DNA from: Candidatus Acidiferrales bacterium
GTDB lineage: Bacteria; Acidobacteriota; Terriglobia; Acidiferrales; UBA7541
Reading direction: 5' to 3'
Assembly: GCA_963779395.1 (NCBI GenBank)
Contig: CAVZYC010000002.1
Location: forward strand, 331,651 to 395,650
DNA: 64,000 nt
A program made the translations under genes and the position numbers. The notes under the pieces are model-generated. The model had not been told where the DNA came from, did not search any database, and was given only the letters and a program-made list of their open reading frames with translations. Of this stretch, positions 2,653-56,750 are shown piece by piece; within the stretch, counting starts at the first letter, position 1; each line of letters starts with the position of its first letter.

Positions 2653-4068
2653 CTATCTGCTTGCGGTGGCCGGCGTTTCCACCGGTTCCACAATCAATTT
2701 CAATCCCTCGATGCGCATCACGCGCACCGCTTGTTTTTCCGCAATCGCCACCGGCGATCCAGCGCGCCACAATTCCCCATGAATGCGCACCATGCCTTCG
2801 CCCCCCGCGGCCAGCGCGGTAGTGACAATTCCCTCTTCGCCCAACAATTCCTCTTTGCCGGTCGAGACCTTCCACTGCCTCGATCGCAGCACCAGCCGCA
2901 TTAAAAATACAGCAAGAATCGCGAATGGAATGGTTACCGCCAGCGCAACGCCAACGCTTATTCCTCCCGGCGTCAGCGGCGAACGAATCAGGAACATCGC
3001 GCCGAGTAGCATGGACACAACTCCTCCCACCAGCAACACACCGTGACTCGCCAGTTTGGCCTCAAGCACAAACAACGCCAGCGCCAGAATTATCAGCAAG
3101 ACTCCCGCCAGGTTCACGGGCAACAAATGCATCGCGTAGAGCGCCAGCAGCGCGCAGATTCCCCCGATTACGCCGGGTGCCACAACGCCAGGATGTGTGA
3201 ACTCCGTGTACAGTCCCAGGACACCAACCATCAGCAACACAAAGAAAATATCCGGTTGCACGATGCGCGCCAGAAATTTCTGCCGCCCGGACAATTCAAA
3301 GTCCGCGATGGTGTAGCCTTCCAGCGCCAATTTCTGCGTCTTGCCATCGAAGCGTGTAATCTCCCGCCCGTTCAACTGCTTCAGCAGATCTTCGCGATTG
3401 TTGGCGATCAGATCGATCATGTGCCCGTCCAGCGCCTCTTTTTCGGTGAACGCCCGCGCATCGGTCACGGCGGTTTCCGCAAGTTTGGGGTTGCGTCCGC
3501 GCTTTTCGCTGAAGCTGCGCAAGAAAGCCGTGGCGTCATTATTGATTTTCTTCCGCAACACTTCGTCAATAGGAACGGAAAATCCACCAGGCATCAGGAT
3601 GGGAGTCGAGGCTCCCGTGCGCGTCCCGGGAGCCATCGCAGCCACGTCCGCCGAAAGCAATATGAAAAATCCCGCCGAAGCCCCCCGCGCGCCTGAAGGG
3701 GCCACGTACACGGCCACAGGCACTGACGAGTCCAGAATGTGGTGAATGATCTCGGTCATGGAATCGCTCAGCCCGCCGGGCGTATCCATCAGGATGAGCA
3801 CAAGCGAAGCGTGCCGCTGCGCCGCATCGGTAATCCCCTCGTCAATGTACGTGGCCAGAATCGGCTCAACCATGTCATCGAGTTTCAGTTCCAGCACCAG
3901 CGGCGCGGCGTGTTCATCCGCGGCCGTAGTCGCGGGCGCCACCAGAAAGAACACCACAAGAATTGCGGCAATTGCACAACAAACGATTCCCGCCGCGTAA
4001 TTTCGTTTCTTGCTTCCAGTATTCAATCTCACAATTTGTTTCAAGATCATTAAGCCACGAGCGTTCAT
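2653..4068 (-). CDS. nfeD: NfeD family membrane-bound ClpP-class serine protease (long form)
   Basis: DTPGG and ASAG protease motifs, TM bundle, C-terminal OB-like domain (GELWRA). Adjacent to an SPFH gene, the canonical pairing. Start uncertain. Confidence 0.9.
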   Translation of the reverse strand: MNARGLMILKQIVRLNTGSKKRNYAAGIVCCAIAAILVVFFLVAPATTAADEHAAPLVLELKLDDMVEPILATYIDEGITDAAQRHASLVLILMDTPGGLSDSMTEIIHHILDSSVPVAVYVAPSGARGASAGFFILLSADVAAMAPGTRTGASTPILMPGGFSVPIDEVLRKKINNDATAFLRSFSEKRGRNPKLAETAVTDARAFTEKEALDGHMIDLIANNREDLLKQLNGREITRFDGKTQKLALEGYTIADFELSGRQKFLARIVQPDIFFVLLMVGVLGLYTEFTHPGVVAPGVIGGICALLALYAMHLLPVNLAGVLLIILALALFVLEAKLASHGVLLVGGVVSMLLGAMFLIRSPLTPGGISVGVALAVTIPFAILAVFLMRLVLRSRQWKVSTGKEELLGEEGIVTTALAAGGEGMVRIHGELWRAGSPVAIAEKQAVRVMRIEGLKLIVEPVETPATASR

Positions 4069-49288: not shown

Positions 49289-50035
49289 TTAGAGTTGAGA
49301 CCATCCTCCGTCTACCGGAAGCTCGGCGCCGGTCGTGAAGGTTGCGTCGAACGCGAGGAAGAGGACGGCCTTCGCGATTTCCTCCGACGTCCCCCAGCGC
49401 TTCATGGGAACCATGCCGATCATCTTCTCTCTAAGCTGGGCGGCCGCGTATTTCTCGGGGAACATCTTGCCCAAGATCGGCGTGTCGATGGGGCCGGGCG
49501 TCACCGCGTTGACTCGAATCTCGCGAGGAAGCAGCTCGGCGGCGAGCACCCGGGCGAATGATCGCAGCGCAGCCTTGGCGGCTCCGTATGCGGCGTTGCC
49601 GGGCATTCCCTTGACGTTGGCGATCGAGGTCGTGAGGACGACAGAGCCTCCCCGGTTTATTAACGGCGTGAGCTTCTGCACCGCGAAAAGCGGTCCCTTG
49701 GCGTTCAGGTTGAACATCTCGTCGTAGACAGCCTCGGTGATGCTCTCGAGAGGCGCTCGGATGCTGAACCCGGCGTTGACGAAGAGCAGGTCGAAGGTGT
49801 CGAACTCGGCCTTCACCCGAGAGGCCAGGGCGTCGAGGTCCGTCAACGAGCGCGCGTCGCTCGAAACCACGAGGGCGCCCTTCCCAAGCTCTTTCTTGGC
49901 CGAATCCAGGCCTGCCTGCGACCGACCCGTCACCAGAACACGTGCACCCCCATCGAGGAGCATCTTCGCCGTCGCGAGCCCCATGCCGCTCGTGCCGCCG
50001 ATAATCACCACCTTTTTATCTTGGTACCGTTCCAT
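49289..50035 (-). CDS. Short-chain dehydrogenase/reductase
   Basis: IGGTSGMG, FVNAG, YGAAK, RVNAVTPGPIDT. Confidence 0.95.
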   Translation of the reverse strand: MERYQDKKVVIIGGTSGMGLATAKMLLDGGARVLVTGRSQAGLDSAKKELGKGALVVSSDARSLTDLDALASRVKAEFDTFDLLFVNAGFSIRAPLESITEAVYDEMFNLNAKGPLFAVQKLTPLINRGGSVVLTTSIANVKGMPGNAAYGAAKAALRSFARVLAAELLPREIRVNAVTPGPIDTPILGKMFPEKYAAAQLREKMIGMVPMKRWGTSEEIAKAVLFLAFDATFTTGAELPVDGGWSQL

Positions 50036-50072
50036 ATGTATTCTCCTTGCGAGGTTAGGGTTGCTTTGCTGA

Positions 50073-50145
50073 TTTTGAACTGTTTGGTATGATAATCAGG
50101 TGCGGAGACTGCGGTCAAGGGATTTTTGAACTATTTATTTCAAAA
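50073..50145. promoter_or_regulatory. Two candidate TetR operators
   Basis: TTTTGAACTGTTTGGTATGATA and the palindrome TTTTGAACTATTTATTTCAAAA; homologous to 51278-51347. Confidence 0.6.
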
Positions 50146-50182
50146 TACCGTAAGACCCCGTGGACGACCGCGTAGCTCCGAA
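50135..50182 (+). pseudogene. 5' stub of a deleted tetR paralog
   Basis: Translates QNTVRPRGRPRS versus QNPPRPRGRPRS at the N-terminus of the intact TetR. Confidence 0.7.
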
Positions 50183-50234
50183 ATCGCATGCTGATTCTGG
50201 TCACCGCAACCATTTCGCCGCGACCGGCGCTCCT

Positions 50235-51209
50235 TCAGGACACCGCGCTTAAGGACGCTGTGGAAGACAAGTCGACGCCGGAGACCTTGACGACGGCCTG
50301 CCACGCGGCTTCCTGGCTGGCGCGATCGTGGAGGTGTGGCTGGCGCTGCACCTCAATTGGGCCTGAGAACTTCCCTTGAGCCGAGGCGAAGAATTGCCCT
50401 GAGACGTCGGTTCCGAACTCCGACGCCTGGAGGTACCGACGGGCCGCGGTCTCCGGCGTCTGATTCATGCCGGGAATGAGGTTCACGATTGGGATAAACA
50501 GATACTTCAACGCCGGGCCAGCGTTTCGCACCACCTTGGTGGCGGTCGCCCCACCGGGCGAGACAGCGTACACGGCCATGCCGGAGGGTAGCCGGCGCGC
50601 CAGCGCCGCGACCCACCAAGCGATAATGAGCTTCGCGTCGGCATACGCATTGTTGGGCACGTACTTCACGTTTGGCCCGTTGCGAATCAGGGCTTCGATA
50701 GCGGCGGTCCGGTCTCCCCGGAAGTATTTGGCCGCGAAGGCTGGCACGTCGGTGTAGCTGAACATCGGCACGCCCCCACGGGCAGGTTCCGCGCCGGCGA
50801 TGACAATCCGCGCGTTGGGGCTCAGCAGGTTGGCGCGGAGCAACCCGACAGTCAGTTGATGATGGCCGATCAGCGGGGCCTGAGCCTCCTCGATGCCCGC
50901 CGCAGTGAGCACGCGCTTCTTACCTGGGACCATCCCGGCATTGAGCAGTAGGAAATCGACCGGCCGACCTCGCTTGACCAGCTCGGCGAGGGCGGATTGA
51001 ACGCTGGACGGCGTGTCCAAATCCAGCTCCAGCGGCGTGAAGACCTGTGTCTTGGTCTCAGCCGCGAGCTGAGCGGCCGTTTCTTGGACCCGGGCCAGGC
51101 TGCGCCCGGTGACGATGACCTGGCGGTAGCCCTTGGTGGCGAGCATGCTGGCTGCCGCATAACCGAGCCCAGAGGTGGTGCCGGTGACGAGTGCGATCGA
51201 ATGTTCCAT
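50235..51209 (-). CDS. Short-chain dehydrogenase/reductase (retinol-dehydrogenase-like)
   Basis: VTGTTSGLG, LLNAG, YADAK, VSPG. Confidence 0.92.
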   Translation of the reverse strand: MEHSIALVTGTTSGLGYAAASMLATKGYRQVIVTGRSLARVQETAAQLAAETKTQVFTPLELDLDTPSSVQSALAELVKRGRPVDFLLLNAGMVPGKKRVLTAAGIEEAQAPLIGHHQLTVGLLRANLLSPNARIVIAGAEPARGGVPMFSYTDVPAFAAKYFRGDRTAAIEALIRNGPNVKYVPNNAYADAKLIIAWWVAALARRLPSGMAVYAVSPGGATATKVVRNAGPALKYLFIPIVNLIPGMNQTPETAARRYLQASEFGTDVSGQFFASAQGKFSGPIEVQRQPHLHDRASQEAAWQAVVKVSGVDLSSTASLSAVS

Positions 51210-51277
51210 GTGTGTCTCCTTGGTGAAGGGTGAAGATCGAGTCGCGAGGCCCCGCGAGGGCAGAGCCAGCTTGCTAA

Positions 51278-51347
51278 TTTCGAACTATTCAGTTATATAT
51301 TGGTGCGACGGCCATTGTAAAGGAGTTTTGAACTGAATGGTTCAGAA
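51278..51347. promoter_or_regulatory. Two candidate TetR operators in the divergent promoter
   Basis: TTTCGAACTATTCAGTTATA and TTTTGAACTGAATGGTTCAGAA; the second overlaps the tetR start codon. Confidence 0.65.
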
Positions 51348-51972
51348 TCCCCCTAGGCCGCGTGGACGGCCGCGCAGCTTCGACGAGACGGAGGCGCTGG
51401 AAAAGGCGACCCAGGTATTCTGGTCGAAAGGCTACGACGGCGTCACGATCGACGATCTCGTCGCCGGGATGGGCGTGGGAAGGCCGAGCCTGTATGCCGT
51501 CTTCGGCGACAAGCGGGCGATATTCTTGCGCGTCCTTAAGGCGTATGCAGAACGGAAGGGCGCAGCAGCCGCGAAGGCACTCCTCTCGCCACAGGCACTA
51601 CGCGACTCGATCGCGGACTTTCTGAGGTACGCCGTCGAAAGTGCGACCGAGAAAGGGTCCGCCCGGGGCTGCCTTATGATGTGCGTTGCGCCGATTGTGA
51701 ACGACGCTGAGGTCCAGCGGTTCCTGCAGAGCGCGGTCGCGGGCGGCGCGGCGCTGGTGGAGCGCCGTTTCCGGGACGGGATCAGCGCGGGAGACATCCC
51801 GCCTGACTTTCCGGTAGCCGTGCGCGCGATCCAAGTCACGGATTTTGCTCGTGCCCTGACCATGCGTGCGCAGATAGGCACGCCGCGCAAGACGCTCCTC
51901 AAAGAGGCTGAGGAAGCGGCCGACTTGGTCCTCCTGCCGCGCCTGAAGGCCATCGGCAAGCAGAAGCTATAA
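51337..51972 (+). CDS. TetR/AcrR family transcriptional regulator
   Basis: RGRPRSFD...FWSKGYDG...MGVGRPSLYAVFGDK HTH; divergent from an SDR. Confidence 0.95.
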   Translation: MVQNPPRPRGRPRSFDETEALEKATQVFWSKGYDGVTIDDLVAGMGVGRPSLYAVFGDKRAIFLRVLKAYAERKGAAAAKALLSPQALRDSIADFLRYAVESATEKGSARGCLMMCVAPIVNDAEVQRFLQSAVAGGAALVERRFRDGISAGDIPPDFPVAVRAIQVTDFARALTMRAQIGTPRKTLLKEAEEAADLVLLPRLKAIGKQKL

Positions 51973-52377: not shown

Positions 52378-53078
52378 GGCGGGGAGCCTGTAAGCCGGAT
52401 TCTGTCCGCCGCCTGCCTTGCAGCAGTGCGCCGCGACGATCATTCCTCTAGCCCCGGCCTCGCGACCGGGATCCAGCGACCTACCCGAGGGTTCATCATT
52501 CCCATCAGCTTGCGCCTCTGGTAAAGGAGCCGCTGCGCTTGCGCACAGTGCTCAGCGAGCCGGGCCAGCTCTGCCCTCCTATTTGGTCTTGCACCTCGCG
52601 GGGTTTGCCGTGCCCCCGATGTTGCCACCGGGGCGGTGGGCTCTTACCCCACCTTTTCACCCTTACCCGCGTAGCCAACCGTGAAGACGTCCCGAAGGTT
52701 TTCCTTCGAGCTATCACCGGGCTGCTCCGCTGGCGGTATATTCTCTGTGGCACTTTCCGTGACGCCTGTAGCCACCGGCTTTTAACCCGGCACGCAACAA
52801 ACGTCCCCTGGCGTTACCAGGCGCGATGCCCATTCCCTGCTCCTGTAAATGCCGAGCATTACAGGCTGCGGAAAAAATCCTTTCTTTAGGAGGCCGGGGC
52901 TTCAGCCCCGGCGTAAAGCCATTAAAACCACTGGGCTTTAGCCCCTGAAGAAAGTCTTTCTTGCATTTTTCTGCAGCCTCTGTAGCCCGGCATCCGCATT
53001 CGCAAAGTGGTGTCCGGACTTTCCTCCCGCCCAAGCCGCTTGCGCAACTCGGACCAGCGATCGTCCAGCTCACCCGCC
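52378..53078 (-). ncRNA. rnpB: RNase P RNA (bacterial type A), enlarged to about 700 nt
   Basis: Minus strand shows GAGGAAAGTCCGG, CCTGGTAACGCCAGG, GGAAAGTGCCACAGA, GGGTAAGGGTGAAA.GGTGGGGTAAGAGCCCACC, GGCAAACCCC, AGAATCCGGCTTAC, and P1 pairing GGCGGG/CCCGCC. Confidence 0.95.
52863..52979. mobile_element. REP/MITE-like nested hairpin inside rnpB
   Basis: Terminal inverted repeats AGGCTGCGGAAAAA / TTTTTCTGCAGCCT (13/14 match); inner palindromes CCGGGGCTTCAGCCCCGG and GGGCTTTAGCCC. Confidence 0.8.
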
Positions 53079-53084
53079 AATGCC

Positions 53085-53090
53085 ATTATA
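53085..53090 (-). promoter_or_regulatory. rnpB -10 box
   Basis: Perfect TATAAT on the minus strand, 6 nt upstream of the P1 5' strand. Confidence 0.75.
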
Positions 53091-53119: not shown

Positions 53120-54607
53120 TCAAGAAGTCTGGACGATTGATTCACTCGTAGAGATTGCGTTCTTCGGAAGCGGGAGATACCGAACCAACAGAACTGCAAC
53201 AACGCAGCCCATACCGAGCATGCAGAGCCGGAAATATTGACGAGGAATGAGATCGAGTCGGTCAATCATCGTAGCGTGAGCGAGCACGCTGCTCAATGCC
53301 GCACACACTACGCTCGGCCAAACGGAGCCAGCGGCAAGGGCCAACCACCCCAAAATAACTGACCAGACAATCCCCCAAAGCAGTTGCAGTACAAAATGGA
53401 GGAAGAAATCCGGAAGCGGACCAAACGGCGCCGGAAACTGAAGTTGTTGAGATGACCCGTAGAGAATCCCCACCAAAAAGATGCCACGAAATAATCCAAA
53501 CGTCCGGATAAGCTGGGGCTGTATACAACCACGCCAACACCATTCGCTGAGTCCGGCAGCAAGAGCGAAGAGAACAAAGTCCAGTCCAATGGGAGGTATG
53601 TGTAAATACCACGCTGCTTGAGGCGCGTCAGAGGCATCACTCCAATGTTGCGCCCAGGCGACTCGATCGCCTGCGTAGGCAATCAAATGTGGCAACCAAT
53701 GGACAGCGATGGGTAGCACAACCGCCAGTCCAAGAATGCCAATGGAGGGAAGGCGGGCCGACGCAAGGAGCTGCGCTCGCCGATTCTTGCCCAGGGCCCA
53801 CACCGCAAGCAGGAAGAAGGGCACCGCGTACATCAAGTATTGTCCTGCATAAAACCATGCGCCAAAAGTTTGCGACATCTGGTAAGAGCCGCTGCGGGGA
53901 AACCATATGCAAATCGGGGACAGCAACAAAGAGAGGATTCCACCCCCAAGCCCGAAAAGTGCAAGAGCGTAAATCGCAAAGATTTTCAGGCGGGAGATGT
54001 TTGCATTTGTGTCCTCTGAAGCAACTGGCAAGACGGGGGGGCCGAAATGTGCCGGCAACGAGACCGCGCCTTTCCGAAGCAGCCAGGCGGCCAGAAGAGC
54101 AATCAGCAGACCCAAAACGGCCAGCCGAAATCCGTTGCCCGTGTTTAGAACAAGCCCGCGCAGCGGCAATCGGAACCCGGAGAGCAGCTGTCTATTATGC
54201 TTTTCAAAAATCGATCCAGGGCGTTCGTTCAAAACGATCAGAGCGGGAGCAATCAGTGCGCCCGCGATTCCAACGATAGTCGGGGCAATCACCAGGCCCC
54301 ACCAAGAAGCGGCCACGCGCTCTCGCCGGAAGAGACAGCAGAAATATGCTCCGACACCCGCGATTAATAGCGGAGACGCAAAAAGCTGCGTCAGGAGTAC
54401 CCAGTGTCGAATATCAGCGTTGGAAAGGGGCCCGATGGCGTCCAGAGCTTCCTTGCTCGGCAAAAATAGCCAGCTTCGACCGAAGCAAGCGGAAAGGATA
54501 GCCGCCGCGAGCAAGAAAATAATGTGGTAGGGACTCGCTGGCAGAAGTTGCCGAAGAGTCTTTCTCAAACGAAACCGACGCGGCACGGGGTGCACGAATC
54601 GGATCAT
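53120..54607 (-). CDS. CPBP/Abi family intramembrane metalloprotease homolog, catalytic motifs degenerate
   Basis: Multi-TM; paralog of 55317-56750; motifs read SEWCWRG, YGSSQ and CAALSS. Start uncertain (54607 or 54652). Confidence 0.75.
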   Translation of the reverse strand: MIRFVHPVPRRFRLRKTLRQLLPASPYHIIFLLAAAILSACFGRSWLFLPSKEALDAIGPLSNADIRHWVLLTQLFASPLLIAGVGAYFCCLFRRERVAASWWGLVIAPTIVGIAGALIAPALIVLNERPGSIFEKHNRQLLSGFRLPLRGLVLNTGNGFRLAVLGLLIALLAAWLLRKGAVSLPAHFGPPVLPVASEDTNANISRLKIFAIYALALFGLGGGILSLLLSPICIWFPRSGSYQMSQTFGAWFYAGQYLMYAVPFFLLAVWALGKNRRAQLLASARLPSIGILGLAVVLPIAVHWLPHLIAYAGDRVAWAQHWSDASDAPQAAWYLHIPPIGLDFVLFALAAGLSEWCWRGCIQPQLIRTFGLFRGIFLVGILYGSSQQLQFPAPFGPLPDFFLHFVLQLLWGIVWSVILGWLALAAGSVWPSVVCAALSSVLAHATMIDRLDLIPRQYFRLCMLGMGCVVAVLLVRYLPLPKNAISTSESIVQTS

Positions 54608-55316: not shown

Positions 55317-56750
55317 TCAGGCGGCAGGCTCCGGTCCAGCTTCCGGCTGGGCAGCTAGTTGGGCCTCGGGATCAACGAGAGGCGAGAATCGAAAGAGAAC
55401 GAAAGCGAGCGCGGCCCAAATTGCGACCCGCATCCCACTGTTCCAAGTATTAGTCGAGCCCATTTGCATCACTGCCAGGATATTCCAGACGCCGTGAGCA
55501 ATCGCACCTGGAATAATTGATTTCCAGCGTAGCGTCATCCAGGCAAACACGTAGTTTATCGCCAAGCAGAGCAAGACTCTACTGGCCAAATGGAATAGAA
55601 CTCCGCCAACAGAGAGTCCCGAGTACGAATCAGATCGAAAGTGAAAGGCAGCCCAAATCAACCCGGTCAGAAAGATTCCGCGCTGGAGACCGTAACGGTC
55701 GATGAAGCAGGGCAACAACAGGCCGCGGAAGACTATCTCCTCGGCAAGCCCGACGAAGACTATAAAGAAGAGCAACGGCTGCCACCAACTAGCAAGATTA
55801 AAATAGGTGAACAATTCCGGTGGTCCGAATCTGCCGAAGTCGTATGCCGCCCAGTGAATGCGATCGACGAGGTATTGTGCGGTAGGAAAGAGACCGCTGA
55901 TCGCAACGGGCATGACTAGTCCGACCAATGCAATGCGGAGTTCCGGCAAGCGCAGGGCAATCCGCGCGGAATTTCTTCCGTCCCTTCCCAGGATATAGAG
56001 CGCGAGTCCTGCCAACAGCACGCCGTCAAGCACAGTCGCGATGCTCGTGGATATCGCCCAAAATGTAGGCGAGAGAGACAACGAAACAATGTCTGGAACG
56101 CCCAAGAGCAGGAATGAAACCAATCCAGCCAAGAGGTAGTAGGGGCCAACCAATAGGAATACCAGGAGACGCATCCTCGACCAGGAATCAGCGCAATCAT
56201 CGCGCGGCAATTGTTCGTTTGGCAGACCGAATTGAAGCGACGTCGCACCCAGGGCGAGGCGACTCATGAAGAACAGAATTAGCATCAACCCGAGCGCGCA
56301 GACACTAAACCCTGAAGAGAACTTCAACACGTTCGTCTGCAACCAGTTGATGACATAAACCGCACTGCCCTGTGATTCAAAGATGGATGGTTTCGCTGGA
56401 TTGATCTGGAAAAACTTCCAAAGGATAACAACAAGGCTGAAGACCGTGGGAAAACAAACTGCTAAGAGTACTCGGCGTACAGGTCTCTTCCCTGGCCAAA
56501 AACAAACAAAATAGCCGGCTAACCCCGCGAACATTATGGGGTACGTAAAGGCAACTATGAACCGTCCGGCTTCAAAGCGATGTGTTCCGCTCTGCCACGC
56601 AGTGGATCTGAGACCGAAAGATTCCAGAAGTTCGGTGGGCCACCAAGGAAGGCTCGGCGAAACGAAGAGAAAAACGACACCGAGAAGAAAAACCAATTGC
56701 CAAGGTTCGTTGGGAATCACGGAGCGGAGGAATTCGGCAAGGCGCTTCAT
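55317..56750 (-). CDS. CPBP/Abi family intramembrane metalloprotease, motifs intact
   Basis: AEEIVFRG, WAAFH and AHGVWN motifs; long multi-TM N-terminal extension. Confidence 0.88.
   Translation of the reverse strand: MKRLAEFLRSVIPNEPWQLVFLLGVVFLFVSPSLPWWPTELLESFGLRSTAWQSGTHRFEAGRFIVAFTYPIMFAGLAGYFVCFWPGKRPVRRVLLAVCFPTVFSLVVILWKFFQINPAKPSIFESQGSAVYVINWLQTNVLKFSSGFSVCALGLMLILFFMSRLALGATSLQFGLPNEQLPRDDCADSWSRMRLLVFLLVGPYYLLAGLVSFLLLGVPDIVSLSLSPTFWAISTSIATVLDGVLLAGLALYILGRDGRNSARIALRLPELRIALVGLVMPVAISGLFPTAQYLVDRIHWAAYDFGRFGPPELFTYFNLASWWQPLLFFIVFVGLAEEIVFRGLLLPCFIDRYGLQRGIFLTGLIWAAFHFRSDSYSGLSVGGVLFHLASRVLLCLAINYVFAWMTLRWKSIIPGAIAHGVWNILAVMQMGSTNTWNSGMRVAIWAALAFVLFRFSPLVDPEAQLAAQPEAGPEPAA

Follow-up and report, generated by a model that had tools for sequence, protein, structure and literature searches.

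In the window, the whole 64-kb stretch of DNA that was analysed, the gene of the RNase P RNA (rnpB) carries 177 nt between helices P5 and P6. By comparison of sequences, these 177 nt are two things, a hairpin of ~54 nt that is conserved in the clade and a MITE-like element of 123 nt. We consider it very probable that this is an ordinary orthologous type A rnpB and that the MITE-like element was inserted in the loop of its J5/6 hairpin. The ribozyme most likely stays functional, which we hold with somewhat less confidence than the account of the DNA, and it apparently tolerates a large amount of foreign RNA. RNase P RNA is encoded by an essential and usually single-copy gene. The pair of a filled and an empty site in a junction of the catalytic domain amounts to a natural test of the quantity of foreign RNA that can be loaded onto this RNA, and of the place.

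The RNase P RNA gene and the stretch between P5 and P6

The only Rfam family detected within the 64 kb was RF00010 (RNaseP_bact_a), which matches the minus strand with 178.9 bits vs a gathering threshold of 100 (E = 3.9e-56). An earlier note, made from the sequence alone, had proposed an RNase P RNA of about 700 nt at 52378-53078, and this was borne out by the score together with the assignment of the 5' part at 53078-53009. The same note had suggested the RF00010 search for mapping the insert. The search settled the family but neither the insert nor the 5' part, as the alignment spans only 52869-52379 and the columns of P1-P5 were forced into the 3' end of the insert with many non-canonical pairs. 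Because of the long insert the model stops short of the true 5' part, which was assigned by sequence reading and pairing. The Rfam start at 52869 misses 209 nt of the true 5' end of rnpB (52869-53078). Standard covariance-model annotation truncates and misaligns such an rnpB, and the same is expected in relatives with long J5/6 inserts.

The universal P4 core is present, with GAGGAAAGUCCGG (53026-53014) paired with ACAGAAnCCGGCUUA (52405-52392). Among the helices of type A RNAs, P13 and P14 align to RF00010, and the P6 pseudoknot with P16/17 was recognised by complementarity. This pseudoknot (GGGC/GCCC, P17 region) was assigned by complementarity alone, the Rfam model being without pseudoknots. 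Type B RNAs lack P6, P16, P17, P13 and P14 and have P5.1, P10.1 and P15.1. Assignment to type B fails, as the RNA possesses P13, P14 and P15-17 and within the clan type A matches best. An extra GC-rich hairpin, GCGGCGCACUGCUGCAAGGCAGGCGGCG (52407-52434), separates the 3' strands of P2 and P4; it is partly an insertion for Rfam and may correspond to a P19-like helix in this clade.

In typical bacteria P5 and P6 are 2-3 nt apart; in the rnpB of the window the spacing is 177 nt (52832-53008). The RNase P contigs of other bacteria from soil and peat metagenomes and metatranscriptomes skip exactly from 52831 to 53009, with 2-35 letters between. The 177-nt insert between P5 and P6 described in the earlier note is thus confirmed by these independent contigs and by the motif map. 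The 177 nt fold into a single long hairpin of -82.9 kcal/mol (z = -6.45), and none of 200 shuffled sequences was as stable (0/200). An inverted-repeat search found all parts that had been reported for the insert, i.e., the outer stem AUGCCGGGC/GCUCGGCAU, the inverted repeats at the ends of the element and the two palindromes between them.

Table 1. Positions in the window of rnpB, its parts, the inserted element and the upstream neighbour.
Feature	Position	Strand	Basis or remark
rnpB, type A RNase P RNA, complete	52378..53078	-	~700 nt including insert; RF00010 and direct reading of 5' part
True 5' part: P1, P2, P3, J3/4-P4, P5 5' strand	53009..53078	-	sequence reading and pairing
P1 5' strand GGCGGGUGAGCUGG	53078-53065	-	direct reading, motif mapping
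P2 and P3	53064-53027	-	direct reading, motif mapping
J3/4-P4 universal motif GAGGAAAGUCCGG	53026-53014	-	direct reading, motif mapping
P5 5' strand ACACC	53013-53009	-	direct reading, motif mapping
J5/6 hairpin 5' strand ACUUUGCGAAUGCGGAUGCCGGGC	52985..53008	-	element-free homologues in L126, L131, L159, L153, L168 and others; covariation
MITE-like element, 121 nt and a TA flank at each end	52860..52984	-	123 nt (52860-52982) missing from empty site
Left terminal inverted repeat CAGAGGCUGCAGAAAAA	52966..52982	-	inverted-repeat pair; kept at the ends of family copies
Core hairpin A GGGGCUAAAGCCC	52933..52945	-	within ~70-nt core shared by many contigs whose flanks are unrelated
Core hairpin B GCCGGGGCUGAAGCCCCGGC, then CUCC	52893..52912	-	best conserved part of the family; column conservation at least 0.9
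Right terminal inverted repeat UUUUUUCCGCAGCCUG	52862..52877	-	inverted-repeat pair; kept at the ends of family copies
J5/6 hairpin 3' strand AUGCUCGGCAUUUACAGGAGCAGGGAAU	52832..52859	-	fold, homologues, covariation
P6 5' strand GGGC	52828..52831	-	complementarity and position; partner GCCC 52562-52565
Ribozyme remainder: P7-P14, P15-P18, 3' strands of P5/P4/P2/P1, extra hairpin	52378..52827	-	Rfam alignment, few non-canonical pairs
P2 3' partner	52441-52436	-	motif mapping
P4 3' partner ACAGAAUCCGGCUU	52405-52392	-	motif mapping
P1 3' strand	ends 52378	-	motif mapping
TATAAT -10 box	53085..53090	-	6 nt upstream of GGCGGG start; by comparison
CPBP/Rce1-like membrane protease, 495 aa (P0121, PF02517)	53120..54607	-	upstream neighbour, synteny anchor

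The J5/6 hairpin of the clade and the MITE-like element

When metagenomes were scanned with the P4-P5-J5/6 junction, 46 loci of related rnpB genes were obtained, and a hairpin follows P5 in all 46. Its smallest form is CUUUGC-GAAA-GCAAAG (18 nt). L126, L131, L159, L153 and L168 carry a form of 51 nt, ACUUUGCGAAUGnAGAUGCCGGGC-UAAA-GCCCGGC...GAGCnnnG, which by its sequence is plainly homologous to the outer stem in the window, and other relatives have two or three J5/6 hairpins (83-111 nt), the length of J5/6 ranging from 18 to 111 nt. When twelve J5/6 hairpins were aligned, standard pairs were found in 86% of the cells vs 33-42% with slid partners, and two apical pairs were changed on both sides, e.g. 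from G-C to U-A. Since the relatives have homologues of it and it covaries, the stretch of ~54 nt (53008-52985 and 52859-52832) is an ancestral helix of the clade, and only 123 of the 177 nt are repeat. The earlier note had named a long J5/6 helix that is fixed across the clade and unrelated to dispersed repeats as the finding that would speak against an inserted repeat. Such a helix exists in the basal ~54 nt, but the 123-nt repeat is not part of it. The outer stem was also considered as a part of the element, as similar GGCACGGCT/AGCCGTGCC flank other copies; this was rejected, the relatives keeping the stem without the element and the stem covarying.

The related rnpB genes are roughly 505-645 nt long. 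P9, P12 and the P16/17 region, for which an extension had been noticed earlier, are indeed long but not special to the gene in the window, the extension being common to all relatives. The bacteria of this clade with large rnpB genes live in soil and peat and probably belong to the Acidobacteriota, Terriglobia. A soil clade, probably acidobacterial, hence has unusually large type A RNAs with a conserved helix at the position of P5.1.

The element itself occupies the apical UAAU loop of the J5/6 hairpin. Its terminal inverted repeats are imperfect and 16-17 nt long, two REP-like GGGGCUNAAGCCCC palindromes form its core, separated by a variable segment (52915-52929), and the whole element folds back on itself. 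The earlier note had described an element of 117 nt with inverted repeats of 14 nt; element and repeats were found again, the sizes were not, being 121 nt plus a 2-nt duplication and an imperfect 16-17 nt. What is known of MITEs is seen here as well: the element is small and non-coding (121 nt), the filled and empty sites give a target-site duplication, the register of which is ambiguous, and multiple copies are dispersed over at least 120 loci, three MAGs having 9-10 contigs each. REP sequences are short palindromic units (20-40 nt) that occur singly, as inverted doublets or in clusters, and what corresponds to them here are the two GGGGCUNAAGCCCC palindromes and a tandem array in L023. This array (2510-2937) has 10.9 units of 39 nt (ATTGCCGGGGCTGAAGCCCCGGCCTCCGGCAGGCGCGCA), each with core hairpin B, which therefore exists outside the MITE as well, clustered in the manner of REP sequences. 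Membership in the RAYT-mobilised REP/REPIN sequences is made less likely by the apparent 2-nt duplication, but the element may be related to REP/REPIN in view of its REP-like core and the array in L023. For hairpin B the family CRISPR-DR16 stayed below the threshold in an Rfam search with an E-value threshold (18 bits vs 35, E = 0.41), and this weak score was taken as chance. In 1.2 Mb of fetched loci no inverted-repeat pair with the same ends, 300-4000 nt apart, was found that would indicate an autonomous partner or a transposase.

In GTDB genomes the core 22-mer CGGGGCTGAAGCCCCGGCCTCC is found at no fewer than 120 loci. Among the matches listed, the hosts are nearly all MAGs of Acidobacteriota (Ca. 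Acidiferrum/Acidoferrales, Sulfotelmatobacter, Terriglobia and some Vicinamibacterales), and three MAGs have the 22-mer in 9-10 different contigs each. When the 123 nt were compared by BLAST with these loci, 27 of them matched the element over at least 100 nt. The best full-length copies elsewhere are 80-90% identical and have the inverted repeats at their ends. A core of ~70 nt was seen in several contigs from soil metagenomes and from two labelled organisms, on both strands and with unrelated flanks. The search for further copies proposed in the earlier note was thus positive, for loci of other genomes. Within the 64-kb window no copy besides that in rnpB was found, and a single copy is what is expected since there are roughly 10 copies per genome. 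The repeats form a previously undescribed, hairpin-associated family that is widespread in Acidobacteriota. In the Terriglobia MAG SRVP_35 (L003) the core 22-mer (3071-3092) lies outside rnpB (2417-2932), ~140 nt upstream of it and in opposite orientation; the rnpB of L003 itself has a J5/6 hairpin of ~30 nt without the element.

The empty site was found in contigs from two soil metagenomes of different studies (X1 and X4). These contigs are ~90% identical to the gene and run from 52859 directly to 52983, skipping 123 nt. At the junction two letters (TA) fit either side, which gives the hairpin AUGCCGGGC-UAAU-GCUCGGCAU. The five relatives with the 51-nt form are free of the element, with GCCGGGC-UAAA-GCCCGGC at this position, and the syntenic sister species (L173-L175) have small J5/6 hairpins, also without it. 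With at least 120 loci of the core and element-free hairpins in the related genes, the view that a dispersed repeat of the REP/MITE type landed in rnpB between P5 and P6 has stood up.

Several copies of the element elsewhere lie inside a palindrome, GGCACGGCT-GA...GA-AGCCGTGCC, and this palindrome is also found solo, as GGCACGGC-TGAA-GCCGTGCC, at 4 loci. In GGCACGGC hairpins the element is flanked by GA on both sides in L117, one flank is variant in L020 and L083, and the right flank is unlike in L072. The core hairpins of the element, GGGGC-UAAA-GCCC and CCGGGGC-UGAA-GCCCCGG, are of the same design as the hairpin in rnpB, GCCGGGC-UAAU-GCUCGGC, for which the relatives give GCCGGGC-UAAA/UAAU-GCYCGGC. 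This suggests that the family inserts into T(G/A)A(A/T) tetraloops of GC-rich hairpins with a duplication of 2 nt. The register of the duplication is ambiguous, either TA..TA or AC..AA. rnpB was probably hit because its J5/6 hairpin resembles the GC-rich hairpins with a T(G/A)A(A/T) loop that host the family elsewhere. The identical flanks GGCACGGCT...AGCCGTGCC could also be longer inverted repeats of a subfamily and not target hairpins. If the family recognises hairpin tetraloops, genes of structured RNAs that contain look-alike hairpins would run a systematic risk of insertion.

The locus, the ribozyme and competing explanations

Orthologous rnpB loci were found in L170-L175. In L173/L174 and in L175, rnpB likewise comes next after a homologue of the upstream protease (76% and 71% identical), and GCGGTATAAT stands at equal distance before the GGCGGG start in the window and in both L173 and L175. 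A generic two-hexamer scan at rnpB returned no full sigma-70 site. Upstream of rnpB, near the protease gene at 53120-54607, lies a second CPBP/Rce1-like membrane protease gene (55317-56750, 477 aa). The downstream TetR gene was also tried as a synteny anchor and was discarded, as its homologues of 89-92% identity (L121, L122) lie away from rnpB and others of 86-89% are in contigs named for unrelated phyla; no exact copy of this TetR sequence is on record.

The structure of the ribozyme was compared with 35 relatives by alifold after taking the 123 nt out of the window sequence. Of the 119 consensus pairs 117 (98.3%) are formed, vs 95-100% in the relatives. The filled allele is present without any mismatch in three other assemblies of differing samples and assemblers, being identical over the whole gene in L170, with the left junction present in L171 and L172, and it is also found in soil contigs of X2 and X4. 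As the filled allele does not diverge in sequence among the samples, the insertion may be recent and little exposed to long selection. Inside the insert no terminator-like site was predicted on the strand of the gene. Metatranscriptome contigs over the junctions of the window itself were not found, even at a likeness of at least 97%, the matches being to conserved core segments or other species.

We propose that the insertion took the following course. The ancestor-type rnpB of the clade would already have been large, with the conserved extra J5/6 hairpin at the P5.1 position. In this lineage, the non-autonomous element of 121 nt would have entered the apical UAAU tetraloop of that hairpin, probably a dispensable helix. 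In the RNA the hairpin of the element would stack on the host helix, giving a long irregular rod of ~60 base pairs, which would point away from the catalytic core and leave P4, P5 and P6 free to form. Because such a rod leaves these helices free, the ribozyme is most likely functional, and the rod would probably be retained rather than cut. Catalytic activity on pre-tRNA is likely as well, since nearly all consensus pairs are formed (117/119) and the locus is syntenic.

The transcribed stem of the element may also be cut, e.g. by RNase III, which would result in a naturally split ribozyme with pieces of ~100 nt (5' strands of P1-P5) and ~450-480 nt, joined by P1, P2, P4 and P5. Removal by processing had already been put forward in the earlier note as the alternative to tolerance. 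This does not exclude the insertion account, and we regard it as rather unlikely. The insert is predicted to be an imperfect duplex of ~60 base pairs, as RNase III-type enzymes may accept, and known cases offer an analogy: transcripts of Correia MITEs are substrates of RNase III, RNase III removes the intervening sequences of 23S/16S rRNA with no re-ligation afterwards, and M1 RNA can be reconstituted from fragments. However, bulges and internal loops interrupt the stem at many points, and at least the shorter J5/6 helices are retained, those of the relatives (63 nt or more) being unbroken in metatranscriptome contigs. If the RNA is split, bacteria would have in it a counterpart of the fragmented rRNAs; if it is intact, it would set a size record. 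The broadest reading has the RNA as a two-piece RNase P that a transposon created and that is split in the MITE stem or, intact, as an RNA among the longest of bacterial RNase P, its catalytic domain bearing a rod of ~60 bp, together with a family that targets hairpin tetraloops. As a whole this reading is doubtful.

It is also conceivable that the insertion inactivated the gene and that the 5' processing of tRNAs is done by a second rnpB or a protein-only RNase P elsewhere, for which the scope of 64 kb of the genome leaves room. This is quite improbable, as the gene lies at its ancestral syntenic locus with a conserved -10 box, reaches its score in spite of the misaligned 5' part and forms its consensus pairs to the same extent as the relatives; moreover the allele is identical in four assemblies and the insertion is at the end of a peripheral hairpin, away from the core helices. 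J5/6 is a hot spot of expansion in the clade and the basal 54 nt are ancestral, so all 177 nt might be an expansion in place that is specific to the lineage and involves no mobile DNA. The inner 123 nt, however, has its full-length copies at unrelated loci of other genomes and is precisely absent, with the 2-nt overlap, from the relative of ~90% identity, which makes expansion in place very hard to believe. Metagenome assemblies are indeed broken and misjoined by repeats, but that a repeat was misjoined into rnpB as an artefact is next to impossible, with the identical whole gene in L170, the left junction in two further assemblies and the allele in Logan contigs of X2 and X4. The preferred account is the insertion of the MITE-like element into an ordinary rnpB.

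Comparison with known systems and minor observations

The closest precedent is that of the STRR repeats, which Vioque reportedly described in 1997 (Nucleic Acids Res 25:3471, cited in PMC2858038) inside helix P12 of rnpB in heterocyst-forming cyanobacteria. As in the window, a repeat dispersed over the genome lies inside rnpB and lengthens a peripheral helix. However, STRR are short tandem heptamers in the specificity domain, whereas here the inverted-repeat element is single, measures 121 nt and has a flanking duplication; it lies in J5/6, a part of the catalytic domain, the phylum is Acidobacteriota, and the empty site is documented. The case also recalls the intervening sequences of rRNA, in which a conserved helix of an essential structural RNA likewise bears extra hairpin-forming DNA at its tip in some strains or species but not in close relatives; these are generally not multi-copy MITEs, and the element in rnpB is known here from DNA. 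Elements that target REP hairpins include IS1397/ISKpn1 and IS621 (IS110 family), and there are also the REPIN/RAYT systems. Common to them and the present family is the insertion in the loop of a repeated palindrome, and the core of the element consists of two REP-like palindromes. We take the link to the IS110-family and RAYT systems as a resemblance and a lead; REP sequences are the subject of a survey (PMC3733652).

In type B RNase P RNA P5.1 replaces P6/P16/P17 (PMC2858038). A hairpin directly after the 5' strand of P5 is shared with these RNAs, but the RNA in the window is of type A (P6, P16/17, P13, P14, RF00010) and its hairpin resembles P5.1 in position only. A review covers bacterial MITEs such as Correia, RUP and ERIC (PMC2229807), and another article those in sRNA genes of Coxiella (PMC5896051). 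The element in rnpB is like Correia, RUP and ERIC small and non-coding, with terminal inverted repeats, a short duplication, many copies and an RNA that folds into a hairpin. Unlike them, it belongs to a new sequence family, lies in the loops of GC-rich hairpins and has no known partner IS. A full-text literature search, incomplete in its coverage and weak as evidence, turned up neither a MITE or other repeat inside an RNase P RNA nor a description of the structure of acidobacterial RNase P RNA.

Downstream of rnpB (49289-51972) the window contains a module in which a TetR regulator is combined with two short-chain dehydrogenases (SDR). Homologues of this TetR with 86-94% identity are found in many contigs, among them some with the names Ralstonia insidiosa and Rhizomicrobium, and in relatives the TetR-SDR module adjoins a transposase or integrase and not rnpB. 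By these sequence contexts the module looks horizontally mobile.

In the runs X33 and X37 (organisms A and B, with shared contigs) the core of the element, in the form of window positions 52881-52959, is present in at least 8 contigs with differing flanks. The rnpB of these organisms has no insert, and they could be used as a culturable or sequenced model of the repeat family.
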